DNA from: Escherichia phage pinkbiff
DNA length: 64,000 nucleotides
Direction: 5' to 3' (one strand)
Sequence record: MN850603.1
Shown here: in pieces, positions 15,909 through 57,642 of the stretch
Layout: every line of letters starts with the position of its first letter
Position numbering within the stretch: the first letter of the stretch is position 1
The notes under the pieces: generated by a model
What the model saw: only the letters and a program-made list of their open reading frames with translations
Told to the model about the DNA's origin: nothing
The model's database searches: none
Program-made: the position numbers and the translations under genes

Positions 15909-15909
<1 letters not shown>

Positions 15910-16148: not shown

Positions 16149-16150
16149 GT

Positions 16151-16549: not shown

Positions 16550-16569
16550 TGTGATTCCTTAATACTTTT

Positions 16570-16612: not shown

Positions 16613-16622
16613 ATAGGATTTA

Positions 16623-17069: not shown

Positions 17070-17084
17070 TCCAATTTACCTCTA

Positions 17085-18437: not shown

Positions 18438-19037
18438 TTATTTTACCCCTTTGGAGTCTACATCTAGATGGATAGTATATTCTGGTGGCTCTTGTCCTTC
18501 TTCATAAACCAACTCACCATCAACAATGACACGCTCAATAATACTTCCACGTTCATCCTTCAGGACTGAGTTTTTTACAAGAGTTACAACAAGAGGCGCA
18601 GAATTTTCGAAATCTGTATTGAGATAAGTATAGTCATTCGGGATAGCTCCAGTGTCTAGTACTGTAGCCCCTGTTTCTTCAAGGATTAAATCTCTGACTG
18701 AACTCATCTCTAATCGTTGTTTAAGCTCAAGCATAATACTGTGAGCACCTTTACCATTTACCGTAATCAATACAGGAATCTGAAAAGCAATTCTGTAGCA
18801 AACTACATCATCCTCAACAAACTTATCAAGAACCCAACCATAAGGTGTTGCAGCATCTTGACAATATACGGTAATAAATGGCTGGTCAGGTTTTAAACCT
18901 TTGTCATTTGAGTTATCAGAAGGGTAAGCTCTAATTACGTTTGGTCTATTATTTTTATCACGAGCTAGTCTGTGGCCAATAACATCCACTAAGGTTCTAA
19001 CTAGACCTTTTTCAAGTTCTGCTGTTTCTAACTGCAT
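18438..19037 (-). CDS. tail completion/neck protein (hypothetical)
   Basis: 199 aa; between head and tail genes. Confidence 0.4.
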   Translation of the reverse strand: MQLETAELEKGLVRTLVDVIGHRLARDKNNRPNVIRAYPSDNSNDKGLKPDQPFITVYCQDAATPYGWVLDKFVEDDVVCYRIAFQIPVLITVNGKGAHSIMLELKQRLEMSSVRDLILEETGATVLDTGAIPNDYTYLNTDFENSAPLVVTLVKNSVLKDERGSIIERVIVDGELVYEEGQEPPEYTIHLDVDSKGVK

Positions 19038-19413
19038 TCATTTTATCCCTTCTAATAATGATATATTCATAATGGGACGTATGGGCTAATTGCTGTGACC
19101 AATCCATAGTCATAAATACTTCATACTCATGACCATCAATCATAATAATATCAGACTCATTCCACTCTACATCATCTGAAGTTCTAAGTTTATATGCGGT
19201 ATACAGGATTCTTGTATCGGTAAGCCTGATACCTTCCGGTAAAGCAATCTGTGTACCATTCTTTACAGAACCTTTGATATATGGCTGGATATTACCTTTG
19301 CAGTTAACCTCTACAATATCTTGTGAAGCTACCCAATCACCATCATCATTATAATAACCGTCTTCAGAGACTTTACGCTTTACTACAAAGCTGTGTCTGT
19401 TTAAGAGTCTCAT
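19012..19413 (-). CDS. hypothetical head-tail joining protein
   Basis: 133 aa; ORF track. Confidence 0.4.
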   Translation of the reverse strand: MRLLNRHSFVVKRKVSEDGYYNDDGDWVASQDIVEVNCKGNIQPYIKGSVKNGTQIALPEGIRLTDTRILYTAYKLRTSDDVEWNESDIIMIDGHEYEVFMTMDWSQQLAHTSHYEYIIIRRDKMNAVRNSRT

Positions 19414-19892
19414 TTCTTAATACCCTTCTTAGTAGAAATTTTATAAGCAAGGTTATCTCTTAAGTCACCTGTCTCAACAAGAGGTGCGTTAAAGCCTTTT
19501 TTCTTGACTGTGGAAGGTGCGTTAGGAGGGAGGATAGCAGAATTACCAAAACCTCTTTTAATTGCCTTTTGAGCATTCTTTGCAAATGCTTCTAAGGTAT
19601 TTGAAGGGTCTGTGTTGAGACTGCTAAGTTGCTTATATAGATTCTTCTTAGTCTGCTCTAACAAGGTCTGTTTGTTTAGCATCATAGTGATTTCAAACAA
19701 CCTACGATATACTTTACCAGAAGCTGAAGGAACACCAATAACTTCTTGTAAATACATTAAAGCAGGATAAGAAAAACCAGAGCTATGTTGACCTTGTTCT
19801 TGAAAATACCCAACTTGAGCATTAGCCGTTTGCAAGTTCTTCATAGCCCCGACTAATTTTGCTCTAGCGGGGTGAATAACCCTTTTAACCAT
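19410..19892 (-). CDS. hypothetical head-tail connector protein
   Basis: 160 aa; ORF track; ATGA overlap with downstream gene. Confidence 0.4.
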   Translation of the reverse strand: MVKRVIHPARAKLVGAMKNLQTANAQVGYFQEQGQHSSGFSYPALMYLQEVIGVPSASGKVYRRLFEITMMLNKQTLLEQTKKNLYKQLSSLNTDPSNTLEAFAKNAQKAIKRGFGNSAILPPNAPSTVKKKGFNAPLVETGDLRDNLAYKISTKKGIKK

Positions 19893-19964
19893 TATTCATC
19901 TCGCTCGATAATAAATACGCCATTAACACGGTTGCAGTAATCTCTGCCTTCGTATCTGGCAGCA

Positions 19965-20339
19965 TCACCATACTGTGTATTTCTTGACAGAGCAAGGATT
20001 CTGACGACGCATGTCAATATCACACTGATTAATACCACCTGCATAGGGTAGTCCTGAAACAGAGCTTTTAACAAGGTCGTCATAAACAGCTTTCAGAGAC
20101 TTGAATCTGGAAGAGTTACGTAAGTAAACACCACCAACCTTCTCATCTCCCATCTTGGCTACTTGAAAGAGTAAATATTTAAGAGCTTTGATGGCTGCTT
20201 TCTTTTCATCCTTTCCAGATTCTAGATAGAACCACTCTAGCACAGACTGCTCAATAAGAATTTCATCATTATTAGTGTCTGTGCAGAGGATTCTTACTCT
20301 ATCAAGAGGGTTATTGGCTGGGTCGCCTGTATAACACAT
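19965..20339 (-). CDS. hypothetical head completion protein
   Basis: 124 aa; directly downstream of capsid gene. Confidence 0.4.
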   Translation of the reverse strand: MCYTGDPANNPLDRVRILCTDTNNDEILIEQSVLEWFYLESGKDEKKAAIKALKYLLFQVAKMGDEKVGGVYLRNSSRFKSLKAVYDDLVKSSVSGLPYAGGINQCDIDMRRQNPCSVKKYTVW

Positions 20340-20361
20340 TCATAACCCTCCTTACCTATCA

Positions 20362-21468
20362 TTACTCAGAGTCTGAGCGAACGTCAACCAGCAGTTGAGG
20401 ACGTGTGCAGTATGGCAGCATGTAAGAGTGAGCTTCGAAGTCAATACCTTCATCACGGTCTTTTTCGTATTCAAATACGTACAACTCCTGACCCAGAGTA
20501 TTTGCGTAGCCCATCTTCGGACATGGAGCGTAAGCTACTTCAAAGATGTTGTTTGCTTCACCAAGCATAGAAACGTTAGGGAAAGCGTGCCCTACACCTA
20601 CAGTTCCATCCTGAGTAACACCATCGATGCTAACCAGAGTATGGGTCTTTCCGCGCTTGTCTTTGAACTTACCGTTGTACTGGACAAACTTAACACCACC
20701 GTAGTAGAACGTGTTCATATGAGCCTGAACACCATCAGAACCACCAGTTCTCAGAGAGCCAGTAATCTGTTGCCATGCCAGCGGAGTCTGCTGTGCAAGG
20801 TATGCGTCACGAATCTTCGGATGCTTGGTAAGTTTACTGAAGAAAGTTCTGTCAACAACTACGTGAATCTCTTCACCGTTGATTACAGTACCAGTCTTAG
20901 CTTCGTCTTCCATGTGCATACGTAGGTCTTCGATGTGAGCATCAATATCAGAGTTCGGATTGTCAAGGTCGAAGTAGATAGTCTTCTTAGTTACATCGAA
21001 CTGTTTGTACAGGTCTGCGTACAGAACACCATTAGCGTCGATAACTTTACCCTTCAGAGCTTGCATGAACAAGAACTCACGAGTAATATCGAACTTGGTG
21101 CGAATCTTCATCAGCTTCTTAGCACGAACGATAGCTTCAGTGGTTAGTTCATTTGCAGTACCTGGCTGACGTACACCCTGAATCTCATCAGGAGTAATGC
21201 TTTCAACTTCCTTGAAGTACATCATTGGGAAGCTGATTTGACGAACACGCTCAGGAGCACTTGTTTCAGCTTTACGGCTAGTGCGGTCTACAGCATCAAG
21301 CAAGCTGATATCCCAATCTGTCAAGTCCATCAGGAAGGTTGTCTGAGTTTGTGGTGCTGAACGGAACAGACCTAAGTTGGAAATATACCCATAAGTGTTT
21401 GGGATAGACTGGACTTCACGAGTCAGGTCAGAAAGTAAAAATCTGCTTTTTTCAGAATTAGTCAACAT
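20362..21468 (-). CDS. major capsid protein
   Basis: 368 aa; downstream of protease/scaffold and small head protein; typical size. Confidence 0.6.
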   Translation of the reverse strand: MLTNSEKSRFLLSDLTREVQSIPNTYGYISNLGLFRSAPQTQTTFLMDLTDWDISLLDAVDRTSRKAETSAPERVRQISFPMMYFKEVESITPDEIQGVRQPGTANELTTEAIVRAKKLMKIRTKFDITREFLFMQALKGKVIDANGVLYADLYKQFDVTKKTIYFDLDNPNSDIDAHIEDLRMHMEDEAKTGTVINGEEIHVVVDRTFFSKLTKHPKIRDAYLAQQTPLAWQQITGSLRTGGSDGVQAHMNTFYYGGVKFVQYNGKFKDKRGKTHTLVSIDGVTQDGTVGVGHAFPNVSMLGEANNIFEVAYAPCPKMGYANTLGQELYVFEYEKDRDEGIDFEAHSYMLPYCTRPQLLVDVRSDSE

Positions 21469-21501
21469 TGTAAAATTCTCCAGAATGTCTTATTATTGTT
21501 A

Positions 21502-21879
21502 TTACAGGCCAGTTGGTACGAAATCAATACCTTTAGCAGCCAGAGCTTTCTTGACTTCAGCAGCATTAACTCTTTCTTCAAGAGTAAGCATGTCTTTCAG
21601 TTCTGCGTCGCGGTAAATACCAACAACTTTCAACTGGCCGTGGTAAGACAGTTGCAGGTCTGCATAAAAGTTAACGATACATACAGAATCAGCCTGAGCT
21701 TCTTCTCCTGCTGCAACTTTAGAACCATCTGCTTTCAGTACTTCACCTACACGGTATTCTGTAGAAGCTTTTGGAGTATACTCTTTACGAGAGTGGCCTG
21801 TTGGGGTAACCTGTTCCCAAAGAATGATATCATTCAGAGGTTCTCTTTTACCTAACTTAGTAAAACCTTGATATGCCAT
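21502..21879 (-). CDS. head decoration/auxiliary protein (hypothetical)
   Basis: 125 aa between protease/scaffold and capsid genes. Confidence 0.4.
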   Translation of the reverse strand: MAYQGFTKLGKREPLNDIILWEQVTPTGHSRKEYTPKASTEYRVGEVLKADGSKVAAGEEAQADSVCIVNFYADLQLSYHGQLKVVGIYRDAELKDMLTLEERVNAAEVKKALAAKGIDFVPTGL

Positions 21880-21890
21880 TATTGTGTTCC

Positions 21891-23237
21891 TTATTTGATA
21901 AGAGATTTTAGAGCATTCTGGAGAGCCAGTTTGCGTTGTTCAGCGGTGTCTTCGGAAGCATTCTTAGCTGGTTCTTTTTCTTCTTCAACTAAATCAGCTT
22001 CGCCGTCATTACCCACTTCTTCCATAGCGTTGGAATGTTCAAGAACAGCACCAGCAGTTTCTTTCAGCTTGGTAATTTCTGATTCTTTTTCTTCCATTGC
22101 AGAAGCATGGGACGCGACAGTTTCATTAAGTTTCTGGTTAGCACCTTCCATAGCATTCATAAACAGAACACTTAGAGGGTTATCAAGACCAGCACCTAAA
22201 ATAGTCGTTGCAGCTTCTTTTGCATCAAACCCAAAAGCTTCAGCAGAAGCAGAAATCTTATTAGTCAAATCTGACAAAGCAGCTTCCTGTTCTTTAGCTT
22301 TCATTTGAGCAACCTGAAGACGCAAAGCTTCTAGTTCTTGCTTTTCTTGTTCAGTCATTTCTTCACCTGAATTGTTAACGTTTAAACTTACAGGAGCCTC
22401 TTCAGAACCTTGTAAGTAATTTAAGAAATCATCTTGAGACATGATTGAGTTAATTAAACCAAGTTCAAGAGCTTCCTGAGCAGAATAAACATTCGCCTCA
22501 GTATTCTTTACAGCTTCTTCAGAGAGATTACGAGATTCAGCTACAAAACCTGTAAAGGTTGCGTAGGTATCATTAATTCTCTTTTGAAGTCTTTCTTTGC
22601 TTTCTTCTGAAAGTGCTTGGAATGGTGAACCCATACCTTTAAACTCACCAGCCTTGATGACGTTAATTGTTACGCCATTCTTTTCAAATGCTTTAGTTAA
22701 TTCCTGATGAACCATAATTACACCAATAGAACCAACATCTGCATCTGGTGATGCAATAATTTCTTCAGCAGAAGATGCAAGAGCGTATGCAGCGGAACAA
22801 GCGAACTCATCTACATAAGCAATAATTTTCTTTTGGCCTCTTGAAGCCATGATGTGACGTGCTAATTCAAAGCAACCTGAAGCTTCACCGCCACCAGAAT
22901 CAATGTGCAGAACAATAGTCTTGATTGACTCATCTGCTAAAGCTTCGTCAAAGCCTCTACGCAAACCTTCATAAGAGCTTAATCCACCTGTACACATTGC
23001 ATCAATGAATGTCATACGATGGGTTAAACCACCCATAATAGGGATAATAGCAATGTCATCTTTTACTTTTAAAAGACTTCTTGCTTCACCTTTGGGTTTA
23101 TCAAAGTTTACTGCTGCTTGGACATCACCCAGTAATCTGTTATTTACATAAGTTGCTGCTGAGTGAGCTAATGATTCAGTGGCTAGTAAAGGTTGGTTGA
23201 ATAATCTATCAGCAAGTCTGAAGATATTCGAACTCAT
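21891..23237 (-). CDS. prohead protease (S49/ClpP-like) fused to scaffold-like C-terminal domain
   Basis: 448 aa; N-terminal region with serine-peptidase S49-like motifs (IVLHIDSGGGEASG, YVDEFACSAAYALAS); C-terminal half is E/A/K-rich helical. Confidence 0.7.
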   Translation of the reverse strand: MSSNIFRLADRLFNQPLLATESLAHSAATYVNNRLLGDVQAAVNFDKPKGEARSLLKVKDDIAIIPIMGGLTHRMTFIDAMCTGGLSSYEGLRRGFDEALADESIKTIVLHIDSGGGEASGCFELARHIMASRGQKKIIAYVDEFACSAAYALASSAEEIIASPDADVGSIGVIMVHQELTKAFEKNGVTINVIKAGEFKGMGSPFQALSEESKERLQKRINDTYATFTGFVAESRNLSEEAVKNTEANVYSAQEALELGLINSIMSQDDFLNYLQGSEEAPVSLNVNNSGEEMTEQEKQELEALRLQVAQMKAKEQEAALSDLTNKISASAEAFGFDAKEAATTILGAGLDNPLSVLFMNAMEGANQKLNETVASHASAMEEKESEITKLKETAGAVLEHSNAMEEVGNDGEADLVEEEKEPAKNASEDTAEQRKLALQNALKSLIK

Positions 23238-23248
23238 TTTTACTCACC

Positions 23249-23581
23249 CTATTTGTTTAAATCTACAGAGACTGAAGAGATAACATAGATACCTTCTTCA
23301 GCAAAGAATTGAGGTTTGCTAAGAGCACCAGTTGCCACGCATTTATCGTTAGCATCCCACAAGCTATAGTGTGAGACCGTTGCAGAAGCTGGGACAGTAA
23401 TGTTAACTGTGTCTTCTGAGGCAATTAAGCCATTATCCGGTTCAGAAAAATAAATAGCCACTGGCTGAGTAACCTTATTTGCTGTAGGGTCTGCCGTTGG
23501 GTCTACATTGTGTAAAATAATAGTCGTTGGGGTTAGCGTGGCGAGGATTTTATTCTTACCATCAATAGTTAATGTTCCCAT
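23249..23581 (-). CDS. hypothetical protein
   Basis: 110 aa; ORF track. Confidence 0.4.
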   Translation of the reverse strand: MGTLTIDGKNKILATLTPTTIILHNVDPTADPTANKVTQPVAIYFSEPDNGLIASEDTVNITVPASATVSHYSLWDANDKCVATGALSKPQFFAEEGIYVISSVSVDLNK

Positions 23582-24081
23582 TAATTAAACCTTACTTTTT
23601 GTTTAAGGACTGTTGAATGGTTACCAGATTCATCTACCACATTTACAATCATATCATATACTTTGCCTTTGACAAGTACTTTGTAATCATTTTGTGAAAA
23701 AATGTATTCAAGTCTGTTTGTTTCTTTATTAACTGTCATTGGAGATTGAAATGCAGTGTCAAGGGTAATGAAAGCGGCTTCAATGCTATTAACATTGATA
23801 CGTTTATTCTCGCAGTTATATAACTTTACACCCAAAAGGCATGAGCTGTCAAATGGAATTTTAACAATTTCACTACAATTTCCTGAAATAAACGGTTTTC
23901 CACTCATTGGAGCATCAAGTAACCTGCAAATAGTGAAAACGTCAGAGGCTCCACCATCACTTACATAACCTGAAAGGCTGACCCTTGAGCCAGCCTCTAC
24001 AGATAATTTGTCAGTGATAATAAGAACACCTCTATACGAATGCACTCGTGTAGCATTTGAAATAGAGATAACTTCAGCCAT
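23581..24081 (-). CDS. hypothetical head protein
   Basis: 166 aa; ORF track. Confidence 0.4.
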   Translation of the reverse strand: MAEVISISNATRVHSYRGVLIITDKLSVEAGSRVSLSGYVSDGGASDVFTICRLLDAPMSGKPFISGNCSEIVKIPFDSSCLLGVKLYNCENKRINVNSIEAAFITLDTAFQSPMTVNKETNRLEYIFSQNDYKVLVKGKVYDMIVNVVDESGNHSTVLKQKVRFN

Positions 24082-25556
24082 TATTTATTTGCCTTATTTG
24101 CTGTGCTTGGGTCTTTCGCTGAAGGTGTCTTTGCAGTACCTTCTCCAGCGGTCTTATAACCATCTCCTGAGCGGCTTTGGCTATTTGGAGAAAGCTTTTC
24201 AGATACTGGTTGAGACTCATCAGCAGGAGGAAGACCAATATGCTCTCTAAGCTTGTTAGATAGCTCTTTGTCAACTTCCAAAGCACCTACTGCAACAGTC
24301 TTTTGAATATAAGAACCAATTGCTTCAAGGTCTGGAGTTTCGATATCATCATATGTGATTTGCACATGTTCTTCATCGTCCCACATATTAAGAGCATAAG
24401 TCTGTGCAACTAAATCACGGTTAATTACGTTCTTAATTTGCTTCAGCAGGATATCTACTGACATTGCTAGTAAGCTCGTCTTAGAATCTGCAAGAGAGAA
24501 TGAACCGTATTTTGACTGACCCATAGCAAGAACATCTGACATAAATGCCATCATAATCTGCTTGGAATATCTGTCAATAATAGAACCTGTGTCATATGCT
24601 TTAGCACCCTGTCTAGAAACTAATGAGAACTCGAAAATATCCTCTTTAGTATCTGGGTCAATATATCTAGGCCAGATTAAACCTGCTCTGTCATTAGCAA
24701 TCATATCATTAACAACAGTTTTGCAGTATTGTACGAAAGCTTTCTTTTCAGGTTCTGCATTTTCATCCAGATAGTCCGGTGGTAAACCAATTTTTGGCAT
24801 ACCTACCAAGTCTCTTGAAACGCCAACTGCTTCATACTCTTCAATCTGTACTTTATATTTCCACGGTACATAAGCATTAAGTAATGGTGAACGACCTTCT
24901 GGGTTTCCATATTCATCATCATACTTAAACAGCATGAATTTAGCTCGTGGAAGTTTTCTTGTTAATGGTCTCTCTCCAAGATTAATTGCTCCAGCAATAT
25001 GTGAAACATTTCTCAGATTTTGTCTGACACCAGTAACTTTTCTAAAGTCTTCATCAAAATACCACTTATCCAGTGTTGATTGGTTTCTGATTGGTAATTT
25101 AGCCCATCCAATTAGACCATCATCAAATTTTGACTGGTACTTTCCTTTTTTACCCTGTCGCTTCTTATAAACTTTCTCGTTAACACAGAACCCATAAGTG
25201 CAGAATGACATTACAGAATTAATAAAATCTGCCCAATCATGCTCCATGTCATCCATTAAAGAATTAAAGAAGTCTGCTCTTTCAAGCATTTTAGGGTCTT
25301 GCTCTTTTCCCTTTGGAGGTACGAATCTCCAGTTGACTTTTCTGACAAACATCTTAATAATATTTACAGATGCTGCTACAGCAGGGTCACGCATCATTAA
25401 TTGGAAAGTTTTAATACTTTCAGGGAACCTTAGTGCCTGACGAGGTTCTTCATAGATTCTTCCATTCTTAACCTTCAGACCCAAAGAACCTACTTCACCC
25501 ATTCTAAATGGTGGTAAGCTTTCTTGTGTTTCTGTAATATCTGCCATTCTTCTCAC
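24081..25556 (-). CDS. portal protein
   Basis: 491 aa immediately downstream of large terminase. Confidence 0.65.
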   Translation of the reverse strand: MRRMADITETQESLPPFRMGEVGSLGLKVKNGRIYEEPRQALRFPESIKTFQLMMRDPAVAASVNIIKMFVRKVNWRFVPPKGKEQDPKMLERADFFNSLMDDMEHDWADFINSVMSFCTYGFCVNEKVYKKRQGKKGKYQSKFDDGLIGWAKLPIRNQSTLDKWYFDEDFRKVTGVRQNLRNVSHIAGAINLGERPLTRKLPRAKFMLFKYDDEYGNPEGRSPLLNAYVPWKYKVQIEEYEAVGVSRDLVGMPKIGLPPDYLDENAEPEKKAFVQYCKTVVNDMIANDRAGLIWPRYIDPDTKEDIFEFSLVSRQGAKAYDTGSIIDRYSKQIMMAFMSDVLAMGQSKYGSFSLADSKTSLLAMSVDILLKQIKNVINRDLVAQTYALNMWDDEEHVQITYDDIETPDLEAIGSYIQKTVAVGALEVDKELSNKLREHIGLPPADESQPVSEKLSPNSQSRSGDGYKTAGEGTAKTPSAKDPSTANKANK

Positions 25557-25563
25557 CTAGCTA

Positions 25564-27180
25564 TCAACGTCTAAGCCCCTCATATGGATTTCCTCTCACT
25601 AAGTCTGTGTGAGCACCCATTGATGGTGGCTTGAATAATTTAACTTCGTTAAGACTGTTGAAAGCATCACTGGTAGCATCCACTTGGTCATCTTTAGTTT
25701 TGCCATCACCACAAAAGCCTTCAAGCTCTTGAAAGTAAGCTTCATTCCAACTACCTCTCAAGACTTTTACAAGTCCAGCTTCAGAAGCAGCAGAAAATCC
25801 CGCAAAGCGGGTAACTTTATCTTTATTTGTTGGTTTAGCTCTTGCACGATAGCCTTTCTCGGAAAGTTTCCTGATGAGTGATGTTGCGTAGGATTTACCA
25901 GCAGCGCCTGGGTCTTGAGGGATAAAAATACCAGTTCGCTTACCGTCACTTTCAGCAGTCAAATTAATTTGTGTTTCGACTCCAGAGGGTCTATCTCTAA
26001 ATCTTACTACATCAATGATATAATAGCAACCGTCTTTTTTAGATTTACCCATCTTAACACCTGCTGTCCAGTCTGGATTAGGGTTAACCTCAGATGGTAA
26101 AGTTGCTGCTAAGTCCCATGCTCTAACATCAAATACATCTTCTGGGAGTGAATCAACAATCTCACACCATTGTCTTTGCCAATAGTTTGAACCTTCTGCA
26201 CGAGCCTTCCAGTTACCGAAACGAAGTCTTGCAACGTTTACAGGTGTGTTGTTTTCAAGCTTACCGCGATACTTTGGCTCTAAGAAGTCAAGAATTGGGT
26301 TATCATCAATCGTACCAGAGATGAAGGTGTATGTTTGAGGAATCTCAAGAGGGAACATTTCAAGAATCTTGTCTCTCTCCCAATCAGAAACCATCACACC
26401 ATCATTCATTACATACCAACGAATACGACCACACTTTTCAGGGTCTGGGTAACCTTCTTCATCTAAGAATGGTTCTACCCAATCGTAAATAAAGTGGTCT
26501 CTATCTGGGTTCATGGAAATCTTCATGTATGAATCACCTTCAGCACCAGAACGTAGACGAGTTTGTAGGTATGAAATCTGTGAAGCAGAGAAGTGTGTAC
26601 CTTCGTCAAAGTAAATAGCTGAGTATTCAATACCCTGATGACCTTCAGCGTGCTTTTCAAGTTCTAGGTAGGTAAACTTGATAGTTGCCCCAGAAGGGAA
26701 TGTGATAGTCATTTTCTGCTCGTGAGGAATCCCACCAAACTTACCAAATAGTTTCTTTGCAGCAGGCCATAAACCACCTTGTAACTGTGTTGTATTTCGA
26801 CGGAAATATACAGCATTATAGTTAGGGTCTTCAATAAATCTTAAAGAGTCCATTAACAATGCGGCAGTTTTACCAGCACCAGCAGCACCACCATAGAGAA
26901 CCAAGTCAGCATTAGTATTTAAAAAGACCTCTTGAGAACCCGGCTGAGGGGCTACATAGTTCTTATCAGTCATCAATTTGAAGATAAGTCTAACTTGGTC
27001 TGGTGTGTATCTTAATAAAGTCAGAATTTGAGTTGGAAGGAATTTAGAGGGGTCTTTACCGAATGATTTGATAATTTCTTTTACTTCATCAGAAAGCCCC
27101 AACTCTCCAGCTAGGACTTTCCTAACATCTTCCACTCGCTTCTGCTTAACAGCATTTAAGTCCATTAAGCACCTCCGCAA
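25564..27180 (-). CDS. terminase large subunit
   Basis: 538 aa; Walker A-like LYGGAAGAGKTAAL near N-terminus, acidic nuclease-type C-terminal region. Confidence 0.85.
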   Translation of the reverse strand: MRRCLMDLNAVKQKRVEDVRKVLAGELGLSDEVKEIIKSFGKDPSKFLPTQILTLLRYTPDQVRLIFKLMTDKNYVAPQPGSQEVFLNTNADLVLYGGAAGAGKTAALLMDSLRFIEDPNYNAVYFRRNTTQLQGGLWPAAKKLFGKFGGIPHEQKMTITFPSGATIKFTYLELEKHAEGHQGIEYSAIYFDEGTHFSASQISYLQTRLRSGAEGDSYMKISMNPDRDHFIYDWVEPFLDEEGYPDPEKCGRIRWYVMNDGVMVSDWERDKILEMFPLEIPQTYTFISGTIDDNPILDFLEPKYRGKLENNTPVNVARLRFGNWKARAEGSNYWQRQWCEIVDSLPEDVFDVRAWDLAATLPSEVNPNPDWTAGVKMGKSKKDGCYYIIDVVRFRDRPSGVETQINLTAESDGKRTGIFIPQDPGAAGKSYATSLIRKLSEKGYRARAKPTNKDKVTRFAGFSAASEAGLVKVLRGSWNEAYFQELEGFCGDGKTKDDQVDATSDAFNSLNEVKLFKPPSMGAHTDLVRGNPYEGLRR

Positions 27181-27782: not shown

Positions 27783-27783
27783 A

Positions 27784-35206: not shown

Positions 35207-35440
35207 ATGTGTAGTTCCCAATTAGAAATCGCAGATATTATAGACTTATATCAAACTGCAAAGAGTCATGGCTATATAACCTCAATTGGAAAGAATAGTC
35301 ACTATGATGCTTTGACTGGAATGTATTTCAGGGCAATGGCTCAATCTAGTGAACAACACTTAGTGGTTTCTTCCAGTGAGTTTACTTCGTTTCTCTATTG
35401 CAGCAAAATTATAAATCGCAGGAGAACTGAAAAATGTTAA
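35207..35440 (+). CDS. hypothetical small protein
   Basis: ORF track; first gene of plus-strand block after divergent intergenic region. Confidence 0.3.
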   Translation: MCSSQLEIADIIDLYQTAKSHGYITSIGKNSHYDALTGMYFRAMAQSSEQHLVVSSSEFTSFLYCSKIINRRRTEKC

Positions 35441-36024
35441 CAGTAAGTTTTAATTACAATAGTGATGGCTCTGTATCAATTAACTCACCATATGCAAATG
35501 ACCTACTTAAAGAGCTAGTCAGTCAGTGTGAGCGGGGTCTTCACTATGTTCAAAATTCTTTTAAACAGAAGACTATTGCTAATAACTTGATGCGTGTAAC
35601 AGTGACGGCATCGAATCCAAACTATGACTTTGATAGTGAAAGTCCATACTCATTAGTTGCGCTTGGAGAGTCCAGCCAATTCAAACTTGTTTGCCACGAC
35701 TCAGAAACATTCCTTAAGGTATTTTCCAACCTTACCCATAATAATAAGTACAGCTACGTTGATGGTAGTGTAAACTTCTATCCAGCAAACTATACATGTT
35801 TGTTGACTGATAATATGAGAAAAAGTAAGCAAGAACCTACAGAAATTTCATTTGATGTGAACTCTAGTCCAGACGCAGAAACAAGTAAGAACTTTGATAT
35901 GAGTTACGCATTGTCACTTAGTAAGAAATCCGAGTTCATTGATTATGTCAATGGATTTGGTTTTAAGTTTGATGAGAGTATGAATCTTAAAAAACTTAAG
36001 AACCTACTTAAGACTAAAGCTTAA
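35434..36024 (+). CDS. hypothetical protein
   Basis: 196 aa; ORF track. Confidence 0.45.
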   Translation: MLTVSFNYNSDGSVSINSPYANDLLKELVSQCERGLHYVQNSFKQKTIANNLMRVTVTASNPNYDFDSESPYSLVALGESSQFKLVCHDSETFLKVFSNLTHNNKYSYVDGSVNFYPANYTCLLTDNMRKSKQEPTEISFDVNSSPDAETSKNFDMSYALSLSKKSEFIDYVNGFGFKFDESMNLKKLKNLLKTKA

Positions 36025-36071
36025 GTGTGAATAGGGGCTGATGCCCCTTTAACTATTTATAAGGATATTTA

Positions 36072-36443
36072 ATGAAAGCTAAGAGTGCAAAAGACTTTTA
36101 TTGCTTCCTACAATCCTATATCAATTCCGTGCAAAATGGTGAAAGGTACAACCTTAATGATGTTATCCCAACACCTTTGACATGGAGACTCAGCAAATGG
36201 CCTGAAGAAGATATTACACCAACAAGCGAACAACGCACCTACAAACCTGAAATCAATATTCCAGACTCTGAGAATCTACTATATCCAATGTTCCATATTG
36301 TTGGTCTTGGAAGATTCCTTATGGATATCCAGTATGTAATTGGTAAGGGTTATAAGGTTAAAGGTATTGTTGTTGGTGATGTATCTCCACATCACAAAGG
36401 TTATTTTAGACTAAACGCACATTTAGAGGCTAAAAAGAAATGA
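36072..36443 (+). CDS. hypothetical protein (paralog of N-terminal domain of 36440..37825)
   Basis: 123 aa; aligns by eye with first about 120 aa of next ORF (KDFYCFLQSYINSVQNGERY vs YPDFKEFVKGFIANVKAGKRY; FLMDIQYVIGKG vs FFMDLQYAIINGK). Confidence 0.5.
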   Translation: MKAKSAKDFYCFLQSYINSVQNGERYNLNDVIPTPLTWRLSKWPEEDITPTSEQRTYKPEINIPDSENLLYPMFHIVGLGRFLMDIQYVIGKGYKVKGIVVGDVSPHHKGYFRLNAHLEAKKK

Positions 36444-37825
36444 TTAAAGCAAAGACTTACCCAGACTTCAAAGAGTTTGTGAAGGGCTTCATTGCAAACG
36501 TAAAAGCTGGTAAGAGATATGATTTTAGAGCATATCAAGAGGCTATTTTACCGCTTACCTATAGTTCGTATTGGCCTGAAGCTGATATTGCAGAAGTTGA
36601 GGAGTTTGACTACAAACCAGACTACAAAGTTCCATTTAGTGATGAGTTGCTTTACAGCATTGGTGCTCAAATGAGAACTTCTGACTTCTTCATGGACTTA
36701 CAATATGCAATTATCAATGGTAAAGACGTTGACACAATTTATTGTGAATGGCTGGCAAGAGTTAAACCATTCTCAATGTTGAATGCTAAGTTGAAGGATG
36801 CTATCAAGCCACCAGCAATCACTCAGCAACCAACCAATCAAACAGTAAATGAAGGTGACACACTTACCCTAAGTGTTATTGCAACTAATGCCACTGGATA
36901 TCAATGGAAAAAGGGTGGTGAGGATATCACTAGCGCCACATCTGCAACCTACACAAAACAGTCTGTAGCACCTTCTGATGCAGGTTCATACACTTGTGTT
37001 GTATCTGGAGAGGCTGGAACAAGTGTTACCTCAGATGCGGCAACAGTTACTGTCAACGCACTGCCTGTGATTACACAGCAACCTTCTAGCCAGACCATCA
37101 ATGAGGGTGGGAACATTAACTTGGAAGTGACTGCAACAGGTGCAACAGGTTATCAGTGGAAGAAAGATGGCTCTGACATCCCTTCAGCTACAGAGGCTAC
37201 CTATAGCAAGTCTGGTGCGCTGCCAGCAGATGCAGGTTCATACACTTGCGTTGTAACAGGTGCAGGTGGTTCTGTTACTTCTAGCCCTGCAACTGTCACG
37301 GTAAATGCTTTGCCAGTTATTACCAAGCAGCCAACCAATCAGGTAGTTAATGAGGGTAGCTCTTTGACACTGAGTGTTGAGGCGACAGGTGCGGAAGGTT
37401 ATCAGTGGAAAAAGGACGATGTGAACATCCCTAGTGCAACTGGTGCGACTTACACGAAAGCTAACGCAGTTCCTGACGATGCTGGTTCATATACCTGTGT
37501 AGTTACTGGTGCTGGTGGTACAACAGTCACATCTAATGCTGCAACAGTTACTGTGAATGCACTTCCGGTAATCACTCAACAGCCAACCAATCAAGAAACC
37601 AATGAAGGTGAGACCTTAACGCTGAATGTTGTAGCAACAGGTGCAACAGGTTACCAGTGGAAGAAAGGTGAGGAAGACATCCTCGATGCAACTACTGCAA
37701 CTTACACCAAAGAAGGTGCAACCGCTGCTGATTCAGGAAGCTACACCTGTGTAGTTACTGGTGCAGGTGGCTCTGTAACATCTAATGCAGCAACAGTTAC
37801 TGTTAACCCAGCAGGGGAGGCATAA
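36440..37825 (+). CDS. Ig-like repeat protein
   Basis: 461 aa; four tandem ~90-aa repeats (ITQQPTNQxVNEG..L.L.V.ATGATGYQWKK....I..AT.ATY.K......DAGSYTCVVTGAGG) resembling Ig-like/Big-type domains; stop overlaps start of endolysin. Confidence 0.6.
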   Translation: MIKAKTYPDFKEFVKGFIANVKAGKRYDFRAYQEAILPLTYSSYWPEADIAEVEEFDYKPDYKVPFSDELLYSIGAQMRTSDFFMDLQYAIINGKDVDTIYCEWLARVKPFSMLNAKLKDAIKPPAITQQPTNQTVNEGDTLTLSVIATNATGYQWKKGGEDITSATSATYTKQSVAPSDAGSYTCVVSGEAGTSVTSDAATVTVNALPVITQQPSSQTINEGGNINLEVTATGATGYQWKKDGSDIPSATEATYSKSGALPADAGSYTCVVTGAGGSVTSSPATVTVNALPVITKQPTNQVVNEGSSLTLSVEATGAEGYQWKKDDVNIPSATGATYTKANAVPDDAGSYTCVVTGAGGTTVTSNAATVTVNALPVITQQPTNQETNEGETLTLNVVATGATGYQWKKGEEDILDATTATYTKEGATAADSGSYTCVVTGAGGSVTSNAATVTVNPAGEA

Positions 37826-38289
37826 TGCAACTCTCAAGAAAAGGCTTAGATGCTATTAAGTTCTTTGAAGGTCTGAAGTTAGAGGCTTACGAAGACTCTG
37901 CCGGAATCCCAACAATCGGGTATGGTACAATCCGTATTGACGGAAAACCTGTTAAGATGGGTATGAAAATTACTGCTGAACAAGCTGAACAGTATCTTCT
38001 CGCAGATGTTGAAAAGTTCGTTGCAGCAGTGAACAAATCCATCAAGGTTCCAACTTCCCAGAATGAGTTTGACGCACTTGTAAGTGAAACATACAACATT
38101 GGCATCACAGCTATGCAGGACTCTACATTTATTAAGCGCCACAACGATGGCAATAAGGTAGGTTGTGCAGAAGCTATGCAATGGTGGAACAAGGTTACAG
38201 TCAAAGGTAAGAAGGTCACTTCAAACGGTCTTAAAAACAGACGTAGAATGGAAGCTGACATTTATCTTGACAGTGTATATCCAAAGTAA
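37825..38289 (+). CDS. endolysin, phage lysozyme (GH24-like)
   Basis: 154 aa; N-terminal FFEGLKLEAYEDSAGIPTIGYGT matches catalytic-Glu region of T4-lysozyme-type muramidases. Confidence 0.7.
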   Translation: MQLSRKGLDAIKFFEGLKLEAYEDSAGIPTIGYGTIRIDGKPVKMGMKITAEQAEQYLLADVEKFVAAVNKSIKVPTSQNEFDALVSETYNIGITAMQDSTFIKRHNDGNKVGCAEAMQWWNKVTVKGKKVTSNGLKNRRRMEADIYLDSVYPK

Positions 38290-38322
38290 TATCTTCATAG
38301 GCTCCTTCGGGAGCCTTTTTTA
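38290..38322 (+). terminator. rho-independent terminator after endolysin
   Basis: hairpin GGCTCCttcgGGAGCC followed by TTTTTTATTTT. Confidence 0.6.
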
Positions 38323-38340
38323 TTTTCTAAGGAGAAAACT

Positions 38341-40421: not shown

Positions 40422-40640
40422 ATGAAAAAGTTAACTACAGTTGAAGATTACTACAAACTTTCCCTGTTAGAACAGTATCGCAGAAACCAGAATATCAGAA
40501 AATGCTATGGTAAACACGCTGAGGGTGATTTTTACCATTGCTATGATGCAGATTTAAAAGGCGTAACACCTAGAGGGAAAGTCCTGCAAAGACTTGTTAA
40601 CCTTGAGTGGAACAAACGATTGAGAGGGGTTGGAAAATGA
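40422..40640 (+). CDS. hypothetical small protein
   Basis: 72 aa; ORF track. Confidence 0.35.
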   Translation: MKKLTTVEDYYKLSLLEQYRRNQNIRKCYGKHAEGDFYHCYDADLKGVTPRGKVLQRLVNLEWNKRLRGVGK

Positions 40641-41140
40641 TTTACGAAGAAAGATATAAGATAGATTACCAGAAGACTGGTCATCATGTCTCCCTAAGAG
40701 TAACCAAACCAAATGGAGACACCGGTATCATAGCACATTTTGGTGGTGATTATTGGTATGGTACTGGTTGCTTTGAAGGCTACAGTCAAGAATACTTGAA
40801 AGCTTTCTACAGAGACTTTACAAACGACTACAATAGGGTTGTTGACGAAAAGAATAAGTGCATTAAGCATGAACACCATGCCAGAGGCTGCCTGAGTATT
40901 ATTATGGTACTGGCATTCTTCTTAGCAACGTTACTGGCAGTATCAGCAATCAGCTACATAGCTCAAGATTTAACCATTACACAGATTACTGCAAAGCTAC
41001 ATGATATCTGGTACTTGTATGCTGTCCCTTTAGCTGGTATCATCATCTCACTAATAAGATTCAGAGTTCATAAGAAACGACTTAAGGATTCTGAGGTTAA
41101 ACTTGAAGAGGTAAGTAAAGAATGCAACCTACAATTATAG
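40607..41140 (+). CDS. membrane protein
   Basis: 177 aa; two hydrophobic segments (LSIIMVLAFFLATLLAVSAISYI and LYAVPLAGIIISLI). Confidence 0.45.
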   Translation: MEQTIERGWKMIYEERYKIDYQKTGHHVSLRVTKPNGDTGIIAHFGGDYWYGTGCFEGYSQEYLKAFYRDFTNDYNRVVDEKNKCIKHEHHARGCLSIIMVLAFFLATLLAVSAISYIAQDLTITQITAKLHDIWYLYAVPLAGIIISLIRFRVHKKRLKDSEVKLEEVSKECNLQL

Positions 41141-51730: not shown

Positions 51731-51996
51731 TGCTGCTTATTCCCTAATAAAATCATGTCAATAAGGTTGTTAGCTTTGATTGTGCACTGGTAAAAGCCGT
51801 CACGATAGAACTCAAGGGCTGCTGCTACATCACTGCCTGTGTTGCCTTTGATGATATACCGTGATTCTTCTTGAGTGTACTTATCACTCTCACTTACTTG
51901 GGAGTTTTTGAATGTACTGCTCACTTTGTTCGTTGAACACCCTGACATAGTTATCAGTAACACAAACATTATAAAACTCTGGCTTAGTTTTTTCAT
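51727..51996 (-). CDS. lipoprotein (o-spanin candidate)
   Basis: 89 aa; signal peptide ending in lipobox-like ITMSGC; gene begins inside 51890..52237 in another frame. Confidence 0.4.
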   Translation of the reverse strand: MKKLSQSFIMFVLLITMSGCSTNKVSSTFKNSQVSESDKYTQEESRYIIKGNTGSDVAAALEFYRDGFYQCTIKANNLIDMILLGNKQQ

Positions 51997-52237
51997 ATGT
52001 TAGTACCTCTTTTGTATGCTTATTCTTAGCAAGCACATCCTTCAAATCATTTTTGTAATTGGTGCTCAATGTTACTAATCCTTCCTGATAAGCATCTTTA
52101 GCAACACTTATGAGCTTTTGATTGTTTAGCTCAGTTTCAGCAACTTGATAGTCTCTGTAAGAGTATCCTCCCCAGACACCTGCCCCAACTAAGAAAACAA
52201 TTATGAAAGTAGCTTGACAGAACTCTTTAAATGTCAT
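51890..52237 (-). CDS. membrane protein with N-terminal TM segment (i-spanin candidate)
   Basis: 115 aa; N-terminal FIIVFLVGAGVWGGYSY then charged/helical periplasmic-type domain; overlapped by lipoprotein gene. Confidence 0.4.
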   Translation of the reverse strand: MTFKEFCQATFIIVFLVGAGVWGGYSYRDYQVAETELNNQKLISVAKDAYQEGLVTLSTNYKNDLKDVLAKNKHTKEVLTYEKTKPEFYNVCVTDNYVRVFNEQSEQYIQKLPSK

Positions 52238-52764: not shown

Positions 52765-53460
52765 TCAATGTTTAACTAACATGGTTTTGATGTGTGGAAG
52801 GATTCTATTCACTTTCTGCACATTCTTCTCTGTATCTTCTATAAAACATACTATATTAAAGTAAGGCAGAATGCAAGACTGAATCATCCTCACTTTCAAA
52901 CTTTCTGCACTTATAGAGTTAGTTCCAAAACCACGCATAAAAAGCATATAATCATGCTCTGTGTTATGCCTTAAAAACATCTCAGTAGGTATTCTCTGAG
53001 ATTCGCCTCTCGCTGTCAAGAGTCCAACGGCAGCATGATTAGCAATTGCATCAATGATATTGAAAACATACGTTGGTTTTGCTCTTACAGAGTCAAGAAG
53101 ATTAGTGTACTGTGAAAATGAACCATCAGTCAATTCCGTTGAACAATCTTCGTGATTAAAATTTGTAAGAACTCCATCAATATCTGCTAAGATAAGATTA
53201 CCTTTCTCTACAAGGTCTTTGTTGACTATGACTAAACTATCACGTTTTACACCTATGGATTGTCCAGTCTCTTTGTCCACAACGTTCACAATTGGTTCTG
53301 ATGTGTGGAACTCTTCAAGTGAACATACAACTTCTCTTGCGGTGTCTTCAAAATCCCTGCACTGTTCTGGAGTCCATACACAGGAATCAAGACCTAACTC
53401 ATGAGGGTGTAAGTCATAAGCATGGCACAATACTTCATCAAACTTTCTTAATTTTTTCAT
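52765..53460 (-). CDS. HAD-superfamily hydrolase-like protein (putative nucleotidase/phosphatase)
   Basis: 231 aa; motif-I-like LADIDGVLT (DxDGV). Confidence 0.45.
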   Translation of the reverse strand: MKKLRKFDEVLCHAYDLHPHELGLDSCVWTPEQCRDFEDTAREVVCSLEEFHTSEPIVNVVDKETGQSIGVKRDSLVIVNKDLVEKGNLILADIDGVLTNFNHEDCSTELTDGSFSQYTNLLDSVRAKPTYVFNIIDAIANHAAVGLLTARGESQRIPTEMFLRHNTEHDYMLFMRGFGTNSISAESLKVRMIQSCILPYFNIVCFIEDTEKNVQKVNRILPHIKTMLVKH

Positions 53461-53986
53461 GATTTACCTTAGAAATGTTTGTTGCAAATTCACATTGAGC
53501 GATGACTTTCATATTGTTATAGACATCTTGAGAGTATTTCTTAGCTTTAGGAATTTTGTATGAATACCCAGCATTGTATGATGCTAAAACTTTTTGTAAA
53601 GTCTTCTTTGACTTTGGTTGACCGTGTACCTTAGTCCAAAATTCAAGCTCTTTGTGTGTTTCCTTTGCAGCATAGTCAAAATCTTTTAAGAGTTTCTTTT
53701 TAGCCACATTAGGACTGATTTTGTTACGCTTTACAACAGTCTTCAAGTGATTCTGGAAGATACCATAATCATGTGTCTTTTTATTCTCTACCTTCAGACC
53801 TAACCCTGACTCTTGTAAGGCTATAGCAGCTAGAGTGATACCCCAACCTTTACCCATGTTATTCTCACCATACTGGTAAGCTTTTAACATGTTTACTTTT
53901 TGGCTAATTGATAGCTCTGGGCAGTCAACTGCATAAGATAAGTGTGCTGTAAACATTAAGCACAAACCTAGAATCAATTTCTTCAT
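53438..53986 (-). CDS. secreted lytic transglycosylase-like protein (SLT/lysozyme-like domain)
   Basis: 182 aa; signal peptide MKKLILGLCLMFTAHLSYA; AAIALQESGLG ... YGIFQ resembles the SLT catalytic-Glu region. Confidence 0.5.
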   Translation of the reverse strand: MKKLILGLCLMFTAHLSYAVDCPELSISQKVNMLKAYQYGENNMGKGWGITLAAIALQESGLGLKVENKKTHDYGIFQNHLKTVVKRNKISPNVAKKKLLKDFDYAAKETHKELEFWTKVHGQPKSKKTLQKVLASYNAGYSYKIPKAKKYSQDVYNNMKVIAQCEFATNISKVNHEKIKKV

Positions 53987-55275: not shown

Positions 55276-57642
55276 TTAATCGTAAATTGTAGTTCCTTCT
55301 GGAACACACTTCACATCAAAACCTAAGAACTTACTCACTTCGATGGGTGACACTTTATTCCAATCTAAATGAGAAAGCAAGAAGTTTTCTTGTTTTCTTT
55401 TTGAAAGATAGTTTGTCAGTTTGATAACCATGCGGTCACCCGCTTTCTTAATCTTTTTGTACAGTTTTGTATCATTGTCAAGGCATGACTTCAAATCCTG
55501 AAGAACACTGATAGTGTAAGTGTATGCAAACGGTGCAGCAACGTATTGGATTTTACCAAACATTGCCTCTACAGCCTCTTCATTACCTTCTAGGAAGATA
55601 GTTTTGTTTGTGTCTCGTGAATAGCAATAACCACGAGAAATCTTCCTGTTATTGAACGTAAAGTTTCTGGCAATAATCCAACTGCTTGTCAGGTCTAGGA
55701 CACCATTCATATAGATACGTGTCATATACCTGTTGTGATTAATCCAGTGAACATCAGTTAAGCTGTCATTCAAGAGCTTCTCATCTACTTCAATCCAGTC
55801 TTCTGGTATCTTTTTCCAATTTGCTTTTCGGAAAACATAGACTGTCTTCCCTATAACATTAGCAACTGACTTAGCTACATCTTCTGGAGATGAGCAAAAA
55901 CATTTGCCATCAACTGTGTCGCCTACTGCCTTAATGTAAAGCTGAGGTTCCTCAATTGTGTCTAAGTCTTCTGACACCTCTGTGTATGAGGCTACAGACT
56001 CTGCTGGAACTGCTTTCCAGAGTTTTACAACACCCCTCACAGCTTCTTTACGCTGATAATGGTGTTCCTTATCAGACATCTTCACAATCTTTAACAAACT
56101 TTTATCAAGTTTATGTAGGTTGATTAAATCATCTAACTCTTTTTCAGTCGAGAATACAAACACAATACCATTGTATCTGTGGAACAGGCTTGACTCGTTA
56201 GCGTAGTCTCGACATGCACCACGCAGAATCTGATTGCGGCCTACAGTCTTCTCAGTGCCATTTTTATTACGACGGTCATTAATCACGAACAAAAACTGTT
56301 CAATTTGGCTTTTACGCATTGCACCAAAGATATTGAACATACTTGCCTCTTGAGTGTAGGAAAGTGCTGTTGCACGAATCTTACTCTCTAAAGAGTTGAA
56401 CTTGACATAAGCAACTGGATTATAAAGATAATCCACTTTAGGGATATTGTTCCCGTTCCTATCAACCTTGATATTACCTTTACCGTCACGTTCATAAATG
56501 ACTGAGCCGTCTTCTGCGTAGATAATCCCACGACGAATGTTTAGTAATTCTTCTTCCAGAGAATCAAGCTTAACACCTCCCCACTCTAGCTTTGGACACA
56601 CAGCATTAAACATCTCTCGTGAGTTCAAACGTAACTCAGCATAAGCCTGTGCAGCATCCATGAGTGTAGGTTGGCTATTAACTTTCTTGATAACATCCTT
56701 TGTAATTGCTTCAGTTATCTTTTTAGTAGCCTCAATGATAACATTTTTTGTCGTATCATTCATCTGCAATGCTTCACGAGAAGCTGCAATAGCAACTGAG
56801 CCAATAGGCATGTAGATGTTTACAAGGTCTACGCTCCTACGGAAAAATTCTGGCAAGACTTTGAAGAAATCATCACCAAGTAATGCTTCCATGTTAACAG
56901 GGTATGCAATGTTACCCATCACCACATTAAACTCTGTCCTGTTACCACTAGAACGCCAGCTTTGCTTATGAATCATGGCATCATAAACACCTTCTTCACG
57001 GGCAATGACGTTCATATCTGCTAATACATCGTCATACTCGATATTGCTTTCTGGTTTTACAGCAAAGTATGAGTATACGTGACCAGCTTCTTCAAAGAAT
57101 TTTGAGATACGATGGTCAGCAACTGCTACACGTACAGCTAAGCCATTAGGTTCCTTTGTTGGGTTGGTAGTCAGCTTAGTCACTTGAGGAATACCATTCT
57201 CAAGATAAACAGAGTACTTATTAACAACACCGTCAACATAGCTAGACACTGTGAATGACTGAGCAATTGCAAATGGAGATTTTGAGCCGATACCCATTGC
57301 ACCAATGTAATCATTAGAGTCATTCTTCGTAGAAGCCCCGTAGTTTAGGTACAAACTCATAACTTTATCATGAGTCAATCCAGTTCCAAAATCACGGACT
57401 TCAAAGTAAGGCTCAAAACGAGTAGGTAAATGCACATGGAACGGGATATTCTCTTTTCCAGCTTCTTTCTGAGCATCTACTGCGTTACATGACAGTTCAC
57501 GAATCACTGCCCTTTCTTTAAAGGTATATACACCAGAACTCAGAAGGCTGAACATTTCAGGTGTCATTGTAATCTGTGCTTGAGACGTCTCTAAAGAAGT
57601 TGAACTCTTAATCACTTCTGCGTGGTCGTTTACCATGCGCAT
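55276..57642 (-). CDS. rIIA: rIIA-like protein (GHKL ATPase-like N-terminus)
   Basis: 788 aa; N-terminal MTPEMFSLLSSGVYTFKERAVIRELSCNAVDAQ ... VRDFGTGL ... YIGAMGIGSKSPF parallels T4 rIIA. Confidence 0.75.
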   Translation of the reverse strand: MRMVNDHAEVIKSSTSLETSQAQITMTPEMFSLLSSGVYTFKERAVIRELSCNAVDAQKEAGKENIPFHVHLPTRFEPYFEVRDFGTGLTHDKVMSLYLNYGASTKNDSNDYIGAMGIGSKSPFAIAQSFTVSSYVDGVVNKYSVYLENGIPQVTKLTTNPTKEPNGLAVRVAVADHRISKFFEEAGHVYSYFAVKPESNIEYDDVLADMNVIAREEGVYDAMIHKQSWRSSGNRTEFNVVMGNIAYPVNMEALLGDDFFKVLPEFFRRSVDLVNIYMPIGSVAIAASREALQMNDTTKNVIIEATKKITEAITKDVIKKVNSQPTLMDAAQAYAELRLNSREMFNAVCPKLEWGGVKLDSLEEELLNIRRGIIYAEDGSVIYERDGKGNIKVDRNGNNIPKVDYLYNPVAYVKFNSLESKIRATALSYTQEASMFNIFGAMRKSQIEQFLFVINDRRNKNGTEKTVGRNQILRGACRDYANESSLFHRYNGIVFVFSTEKELDDLINLHKLDKSLLKIVKMSDKEHHYQRKEAVRGVVKLWKAVPAESVASYTEVSEDLDTIEEPQLYIKAVGDTVDGKCFCSSPEDVAKSVANVIGKTVYVFRKANWKKIPEDWIEVDEKLLNDSLTDVHWINHNRYMTRIYMNGVLDLTSSWIIARNFTFNNRKISRGYCYSRDTNKTIFLEGNEEAVEAMFGKIQYVAAPFAYTYTISVLQDLKSCLDNDTKLYKKIKKAGDRMVIKLTNYLSKRKQENFLLSHLDWNKVSPIEVSKFLGFDVKCVPEGTTIYD

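Follow-up and report, generated by a model that had tools for sequence, protein, structure and literature searches.

Two recent virion structures, those of phages Bas63 (JohannRWettstein) and Sf14, display a decoration protein whose capsid-binding domain (CapBD), at the N-terminus, plugs the centres of the 60 edge (pentamer-proximal) hexamers of a T=9 head, with immunoglobulin-like (Ig) domains facing outward (PMC12609058, PMC11821841). The Bas63 protein, named Hex-Dec, is a monomer located at the centres of facet-edge hexamers only, the other hexamers being without density, and its gene lies >10 kb outside the structural module (PMC12609058). In the Sf14 protein gp20, which was also found in virions by mass spectrometry, the CapBD comprises the first 118 residues, with Arg79 and Arg107 salt-bridged to Asp221 in three subunits of the capsid (PMC11821841). 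One to three Ig domains are present in other Felixounavirus species (PMC12609058), and the Felix O1 orthologue gp36 (31.6 kDa, two Ig domains) was detected in virions with 44% coverage (PMC3185647). A Hoc-like role in adhesion or aggregation has been put forward in both structure papers (PMC12609058, PMC11821841). Here we describe the corresponding locus of Escherichia phage pinkbiff within a 64,000-nt stretch of record MN850603.1 (hereafter the window), where a compact plus-strand unit at 36072..38289 encodes, in order, a bare CapBD protein, a Hex-Dec orthologue and an endolysin (Table 1). The window belongs to a Felix O1-like myophage of the genus Felixounavirus, and 215 phage records, nearly all of them from Felix O1-like myophages that infect Escherichia, Salmonella and Shigella, match the region at 80-95% DNA identity.

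The Hex-Dec orthologue of pinkbiff

The second gene of the unit encodes a 461-aa protein that phmmer aligned over residues 1-459 with residues 1-458 of Protein Data Bank (PDB) entry 9NCF chain S, the Bas63 "Immunoglobulin-like domain protein" (E 1.5e-269), and with the Sf14 gp20 chain 9c2d_S (E 1.1e-161). An N-domain of ~124 aa is followed by Ig repeats at residues 125-208, 209-291, 292-375 and 376-461 (83-86 residues each), which were recognized by Pfam as Ig_3 (E 3.1e-44), Ig_2 (E 4.5e-35) and I-set (E 3.3e-34), each over four stretches. The repeats are mutually 67-71% identical in protein and 62-68% identical in DNA; Tandem Repeats Finder did not detect a DNA-level array in the Ig region because the repeats have diverged too far in DNA. 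The translations place R79 and R107 in the pinkbiff protein and D221 in the major capsid protein encoded in the window, so that CapBD homology, Ig array and contact residues, all the testable features of the Hex-Dec/gp20 family, are present. Judged by these sequence comparisons, the protein is Hex-Dec, a Hoc-like decoration protein orthologous to Bas63 Hex-Dec and Sf14 gp20. It is an already known type of protein, with the structures of its orthologues solved on the capsid.

The original prediction for this DNA, made from the letters alone, had called three open reading frames (ORFs) with the coordinates given in Table 1 and a TAATG overlap between the second and third, an N-domain of ~120 aa followed by four Ig-like repeats, a free-standing paralog of that N-domain, and a possible role of the long protein in virion decoration. 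The frames and the overlap were recovered as described, the repeats were borne out by the profile search that the prediction had proposed (Ig_3, Ig_2 and I-set), and the paralogy holds in both sequence and predicted fold, as set out below. The decoration role is upheld by orthology with proteins that cryo-electron microscopy (cryo-EM) places at hexamer centres.

Location and function can be carried over with some caution. By orthology, the pinkbiff protein would sit as a monomer at the 60 edge hexamers, with its acidic Ig array extending from the head as a flexible fibre. The array may, by analogy with T4 Hoc, provide weak adhesion or particle aggregation and be dispensable in the laboratory; the Hex-Dec orthologue of SUSP1 showed no fitness effect in a dCas13d knock-down screen (PMC11879866). 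The carbohydrate binding that the prediction associated with phage Ig domains would be a further analogy with T4 Hoc.

Bas63 Hex-Dec and Sf14 gp20 (chain S of 9NCF and of 9C2D/9C3A, respectively) share with the pinkbiff protein the N-terminal CapBD, the C-terminal I-set Ig array, the R79/R107 pair with its capsid partner Asp221, and a gene located outside the structural module and beside the endolysin; Bas63 also has the same number of Ig domains, four. The pinkbiff protein differs by a few dozen substitutions, with the third Ig domain as their main site. In the phmmer alignment, this third repeat has diverged far more from Bas63 Hex-Dec than any of the other repeats, which suggests mosaic exchange or independent repeat gain. 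Among relatives, the length of the locus steps by one repeat (about 1000, 1250, 1500 and 1754 nt).

Comparison with more remote systems shows where the resemblance ends. T4 Hoc, according to the literature, is likewise a dispensable hexamer-centre monomer that extends an acidic string of Ig-like domains outward, and the PHROG "Hoc-like head decoration" families 2973, 4069 and 3945 were matched through the Ig part of the pinkbiff protein. However, the CapBD is C-terminal in Hoc and N-terminal in Hex-Dec, only 60 of the 80 hexamers carry Hex-Dec, and its CapBD fold is larger and topologically distinct from that of Hoc (PMC12609058). A Foldseek search of the PDB with a model of the free-standing CapBD returned no Hoc chain. 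Hex-Dec is therefore Hoc-like in its working but not a member of the Hoc family. T5 pb10 has a similar architecture and a homologous Ig domain (5lxk, E 2.8e-12; 8zvi, E 6.7e-12), but only one such domain rather than four, and no similarity was detected between its capsid-binding domain and the CapBD. A related architecture is found in single-copy fusion proteins of remoter Ounavirinae-like phages, such as the BIG2-domain protein of Erwinia phage phiEa104, which share the CapBD and, on contigs that extend far enough, the position before an endolysin gene but differ in having the display module swapped (Big_2, a single Ig domain or a Lys-rich tail) and in lacking a free second copy.

In GenBank, "tail protein" or "major tail protein" is a common label for Hex-Dec and the small paralog alike; for both genes, the "tail protein" labels are wrong in >200 records.

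A free-standing copy of the capsid-binding domain

The first gene of the unit encodes a protein of 123 aa (14.3 kDa) with counterparts in Felix O1 (ORF37), Sf14 (gp21), VpaE1 (ORF40) and SUSP1 (agp126). BLASTP aligned it to the Hex-Dec N-domain with 38% identity over 101 aa (E 3e-17), and a phmmer search of PDB chains matched the CapBDs of two chains only, 9ncf_S and 9c2d_S (E ~1e-11). An AlphaFold2 model (predicted local distance difference test, pLDDT, 70.6; predicted template modelling score, pTM, 0.73) contains two helices, and Foldseek paired it in the PDB with the same two chains only (template modelling, TM, score 0.68-0.71), no other chain being returned at E < 1; the viral structure library BFVD gave the same picture. 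The 123-aa gene is a bare CapBD duplicate devoid of a display module. Neither "paralog" nor "gp21" in the Sf14 sense occurs in the two structure papers or in the Sf14 supplement (PMC12609058, PMC11821841), and full-text searches on Hex-Dec, on Ig-like capsid proteins of Ounavirinae and on cryo-EM of Felix O1 retrieved only these two papers, in both of which the gene goes unmentioned. The bare CapBD gene is unreported in the literature searched.

The gene is widespread and closely tied to its larger neighbour. Of 252 related phage records, 232 hold a full-length copy, in each case together with a Hex-Dec CapBD. Carriers include Felix O1, VpaE1, Alf5, Bas63, Sf14, SUSP1, SUSP2 and an 87-kb metagenomic contig (copy 45% identical), and the gene has been kept in four lineages, namely Felixounavirus, Mooglevirus, Suspvirus and the metagenomic relative. 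Its stop codon runs into the Hex-Dec start in every lineage examined, with an overlap of 1, 4 or 8 nt; in pinkbiff the junction is ATGA (36440-36443). The motifs WPE-DI, Y-P, P-S and LLY, which lie in loops, are invariant in both the paralog and the Hex-Dec CapBD families. A reading of the small gene as a programmed-frameshift partner of Hex-Dec was considered and rejected, as the two ORFs encode separate paralogous proteins and each of them has a start codon and a Shine-Dalgarno sequence to itself.

The ratio of nonsynonymous to synonymous substitution rates (dN/dS) of the paralog is 0.10-0.16 where dS is unsaturated (dS up to 1.1), and the gene is under purifying selection. This constraint, the full-length copies across four lineages and the gene's own Shine-Dalgarno sequence (AAGGA) make it very improbable that the small ORF is a decaying, functionless remnant of a duplication, an idea that draws on instances of dispensability. 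The SUSP1 orthologue scored "Not Fit" on knock-down, that is, without a fitness effect (PMC11879866), and the clade of REP5 and Z31 carries only a remnant of the gene, in which ATG has become ATA and ~230 nt have been deleted internally. Aligned to window positions 36000-36470, the remnant occupies 2378-2571 of the REP5 locus (L003) and 2805-2998 of the Z31 locus (L002); REP8, fKMPT1 and Tf were assigned to the same clade by their common alignment break point. The paralog is dispensable and not required for plaques to form, as both the SUSP1 knock-down and natural pseudogenization attest. What is left of Hex-Dec itself in Z31 is a bare CapBD of 134 aa and a fragment of 55 aa, so that truncation is another route to a bare capsid-binding domain.

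The duplication is old. The free copies group into one clade of a neighbour-joining tree, sister to the Hex-Dec CapBD clade, which dates a single tandem duplication to before the split of Felixounavirus, Mooglevirus and the metagenomic sister lineage; Suspvirus carries the same gene. The CapBD family is very narrow, with only 12 clusters among 1.84 billion representative proteins in an exhaustive profile search. This search was needed to reach the distant CapBDs, as a word-indexed homologue search recovered only close copies of the paralog, and scans of IMG/VR with two distant homologues found nothing. Genomic contexts of the distant homologues, obtained through exact-protein look-ups, revealed that more distant relatives have a single-copy CapBD gene fused to Big_2, one Ig domain or a Lys-rich tail, and that this gene lies directly before a lysozyme gene wherever the contig extends far enough. 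Ancestrally, then, there was one CapBD-display gene 5' of the endolysin, and the bare copy arose later, by duplication with loss of the display module.

Candidate roles of the bare domain

Taken as a whole, the account of this locus as a Felixounavirus unit that encodes Hex-Dec and a bare duplicate of its CapBD, and that is co-transcribed with the endolysin, is probably correct. The particular role of the paralog is a more tentative matter. Our preferred suggestion, offered with reserve, is that it acts as a blank plug of hexamer centres, present in few copies or transiently, and tunes their occupancy by Hex-Dec. Such a protein would still bind the centres of capsid-protein hexamers, sub-stoichiometrically or transiently; its sites might be the 20 facet-centre hexamers left empty by Hex-Dec, or immature capsids, or it may instead compete with Hex-Dec for hexamers. 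Any plugging of this kind would tune the number of Ig fibres per head. It is possible, though unlikely, that the paralog is an overlooked third head-associated protein of Felix O1-like phages, either a "blank" plug of the 20 facet-centre hexamers or a competitor of Hex-Dec on the edge hexamers. A monomer on a strict threefold axis would be smeared, and possibly hidden, by icosahedral averaging, and the Ig fibres per head would be set through a translationally coupled decoy.

We favour a continued capsid-related role because the fold is retained, the loop motifs are invariant and co-expression with Hex-Dec is obligatory. The basic paralog (pI, isoelectric point, 9.1) would also suit the capsomer centre, which is acidic in Sf14 (PMC11821841).

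Several observations weigh against this mechanism and against the paralog being a stoichiometric virion protein. The paralog is in neither virion model (Bas63, 9NCF; Sf14, 9C2D), though both phages encode it, and both structure papers report facet-centre hexamers without density (PMC12609058, PMC11821841). Virion mass spectrometry of Felix O1 lists gp36 but not gp37, although smaller proteins were detected (PMC3185647), and the pinkbiff paralog is predicted to yield 7 good tryptic peptides of 7-30 aa. The text on the VpaE1 proteome implies that the paralog is absent there as well. The proteome paper on wV8 does not treat these genes, and expression data on gp19-21 are absent from the Sf14 tRNA paper. 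Throughout its family, the free copy has Gly78 and His or Gln at 107 in place of the two Arg residues that bridge to the capsid. The "Not Fit" result in SUSP1 and the remnant-bearing REP5/Z31 clade count on the same side.

An alternative is a non-virion assembly factor, for which speak the paralog's absence from both solved virions and from the proteomes reported, its co-expression with Hex-Dec, whose start it overlaps in every lineage, and the retained fold and loop motifs. Such a factor might escort Hex-Dec in the cytoplasm through pairing of CapBDs, or mask procapsid hexamer centres until the head expands, and would leave before the virion is finished. This reading is unlikely in our estimation: REP5, which lacks the paralog, has an intact 293-aa Hex-Dec, so that Hex-Dec is not obviously dependent on it, and a single CapBD gene suffices in the distant relatives.

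The replaced Arg residues bear on another alternative, namely that the paralog has been neofunctionalized and acts away from the capsid hexamers with another phage or host partner. Its charge has flipped from acidic to basic (pI 9.1 versus 5.2 for the Hex-Dec CapBD), and it evolves somewhat faster than the Hex-Dec CapBD: between pinkbiff (Felixounavirus) and Sf14 (Mooglevirus) the paralogs are 77% identical and the Hex-Dec CapBDs 85%, and identities to the metagenomic lineage are 45% and 58%, respectively. One speculative location is the tip of the Bas63 puncture apparatus, where an unassigned threefold (C3) density with two helices per 120 degrees has been described (PMC12609058); the paralog model likewise has two helices. 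The Bas63 authors, however, expect the gene for this density to lie in the baseplate module (PMC12609058). Moreover, the Arg79 and Arg107 positions also vary in distant single-copy CapBDs that are presumed to bind capsids, and the close coupling with Hex-Dec speaks for a related role. We consider a new function off the capsid rather improbable, and retain the low-copy or transient plug as the tentative preference.

Endolysin, flanking genes and significance

The third gene of the unit encodes an endolysin of the Phage_lysozyme family (PF00959, E 2.5e-40), in whose translation E15, D24 and T30 fit the E-X8-D-X5-T motif; no signal sequence, membrane anchor or transmembrane segment was found in it. 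The decoration gene adjoins a GH24 endolysin gene in every relative examined whose contig extends that far. The original prediction took the overlap of the Hex-Dec stop with the endolysin start (TAATG, 37823-37827) to imply co-expression, and this stands in part: co-transcription is supported, but the overlap itself is not conserved, giving way to gaps of 8 nt in Sf14, 2 nt in SUSP1 and SUSP2 and 50 nt in a distant relative; in pinkbiff, each of the three genes is also preceded by its own Shine-Dalgarno sequence. Conserved adjacency with an unconserved overlap therefore speaks for co-transcription and not for a common function. Gene order thus supports a link to the endolysin that probably amounts to co-transcription of late accessory genes.

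The prediction had also raised a role in lysis. That the Ig-repeat protein, the paralog or both are lysis accessories through translational coupling to the endolysin could appeal to the TAATG overlap in the window and to the position of a CapBD gene beside the endolysin across the subfamily, single-copy relatives included. We regard it as extremely improbable: cryo-EM and mass spectrometry show the Hex-Dec orthologue to be a capsid protein (PMC12609058, PMC11821841, PMC3185647), the overlap is not conserved, the decoration proteins have neither a membrane segment nor a lysis-family match, and another lysis-related gene, for an Rz-like spanin, is 14 kb away. The lysis-related genes of the window are scattered (spanin, SLT-like protein and rIIA), with none near the endolysin.

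A scan for transmembrane segments found no such ORF between 35000 and 40600 and no holin beside the endolysin. The prediction was correct that an adjacent holin is missing, a point already published for Felix O1, which was likened to T4 in this respect (Whichard et al., PMC3185647). The two ORFs that it nominated as holin candidates fared less well. The nearest ORF with transmembrane segments, 40607..41140, has two, and the far-off 3734..4105 has one plus a coiled coil; both match only PHROG families of unknown function and no lysis family. The ORFs scanned 3' of the endolysin likewise matched only PHROG families of unknown function.

Hairpins flank the three genes on both sides, so that they look like one unit. 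The 5' hairpin lies in the 47-nt gap that precedes the small gene and could serve as a weak terminator or processing site at the edge of the unit; it is kept in REP5 and Z31, and the terminator scan did not call it, its T-run being short. A sigma-70 promoter scan did no better than shuffled sequence (20 sites versus 19.1 expected), and the motif CTATTTATAAGG located 5' of the small gene shows no enrichment (9 matches versus 8.7 expected). The unit lies outside the structural module, which occupies 4380..27180 on the minus strand, from a tail fibre gene (4380..6713) to the large terminase gene (25564..27180), and includes the genes for tape measure, sheath, major capsid protein and portal. Between module and unit are 26 tRNA genes and two minus-strand genes, one for a DUF2828/DUF7788 protein and one for a DUF5681 protein. 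Such a tRNA cluster is typical of Felix O1-like phages.

Table 1. Coordinates of the decoration unit and of other features in the 64,000-nt window
Feature	Position	Strand	Basis or remark
Major capsid protein, binding partner of the CapBD	20362..21468	-	PHROG 29 major head protein, E 1.3e-72; ~15 kb from the unit
26 tRNA genes	27610-32782	-	Between the large terminase gene and the DUF2828/DUF7788 gene
DUF2828/DUF7788 RNA-binding gene	32948..34363	-	
Small DUF5681 protein	34443..34814	-	Pfam, E 7e-14
196-aa protein	35434..36024	+	PHROG 4034
Hairpin GGGGC-TGAT-GCCCC, then TTT	36034..36047	+	Within the 47-nt gap 5' of the small gene; read from the sequence
Paralog gene (bare CapBD), 123 aa	36072..36443	+	ORF list; PHROG 4463
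Hex-Dec gene, 461 aa, pI 4.5	36440..37825	+	phmmer; PHROG 3995, E 2e-241
CapBD of Hex-Dec, aa 1-124, with Arg79 and Arg107	36440..36811	+	Aligns with the residues modelled in 9ncf_S and 9c2d_S
Ig-like domains (I-set/Ig_3), four in tandem	36812-37063, 37064-37312, 37313-37564, 37565-37822	+	Pfam and repeat boundaries
GH24 T4-type endolysin, 154 aa	37825..38289	+	PF00959; PHROG 7 endolysin, E 1.1e-56
Intrinsic-terminator-like hairpin AGGCTCC-TTCG-GGAGCCT, then TTTTTATTTT	38299..38326	+	Terminator scan; 3' edge of the unit
Rz-like spanin	51890..52237	-	PHROG 1152, E 3.8e-41
Secreted protein, weak SLT transglycosylase match	53438..53986	-	E 6e-4, below the Pfam cut-off
rIIA	55276..57642	-	Lysis-related

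Directly upstream of the unit, the 196-aa protein has neither a Pfam match above the cut-off nor a match in the PDB. Genes of comparable size (183-205 aa) occupy the same position 5' of the CapBD gene in four loci of distant relatives (L006 and the single-copy L008, L011 and L014), a correspondence of position and size only, and in L008 the stop codon of this gene overlaps the CapBD start; by this placement, the 196-aa protein could be functionally tied to the decoration gene. It was also considered as a virion component, for which no PDB or Pfam match was obtained. PADLOC returned no defence-family match for the three upstream proteins. In the CRISPRi-ART screen of SUSP1, agp130, the orthologue of the DUF5681 protein, scored "Fit" (important), and the four neighbouring genes of the Hex-Dec unit scored "Not Fit" (PMC11879866). 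A Felix O1-like locus with 99% protein identity is also present in the record of Staphylococcus phage SA1 (GU169904), which looks like a contaminated or chimeric assembly.

With the Ig-repeat protein already known, the novelty that remains is a conserved, co-expressed and dispensable bare-CapBD gene that the structure papers do not discuss: two recent virion structures leave 20 of 80 hexamers bare, and a conserved gene for a hexamer-binding domain lies just upstream without comment. If the paralog does not bind capsids, a capsid-binding fold has been recruited elsewhere. If it does, the partial occupancy of the head would be explained, and the gene would represent a natural decoy that controls the copy number of a display protein, a form of control that would be relevant to the use of Hex-Dec as a phage-display or adhesion scaffold.

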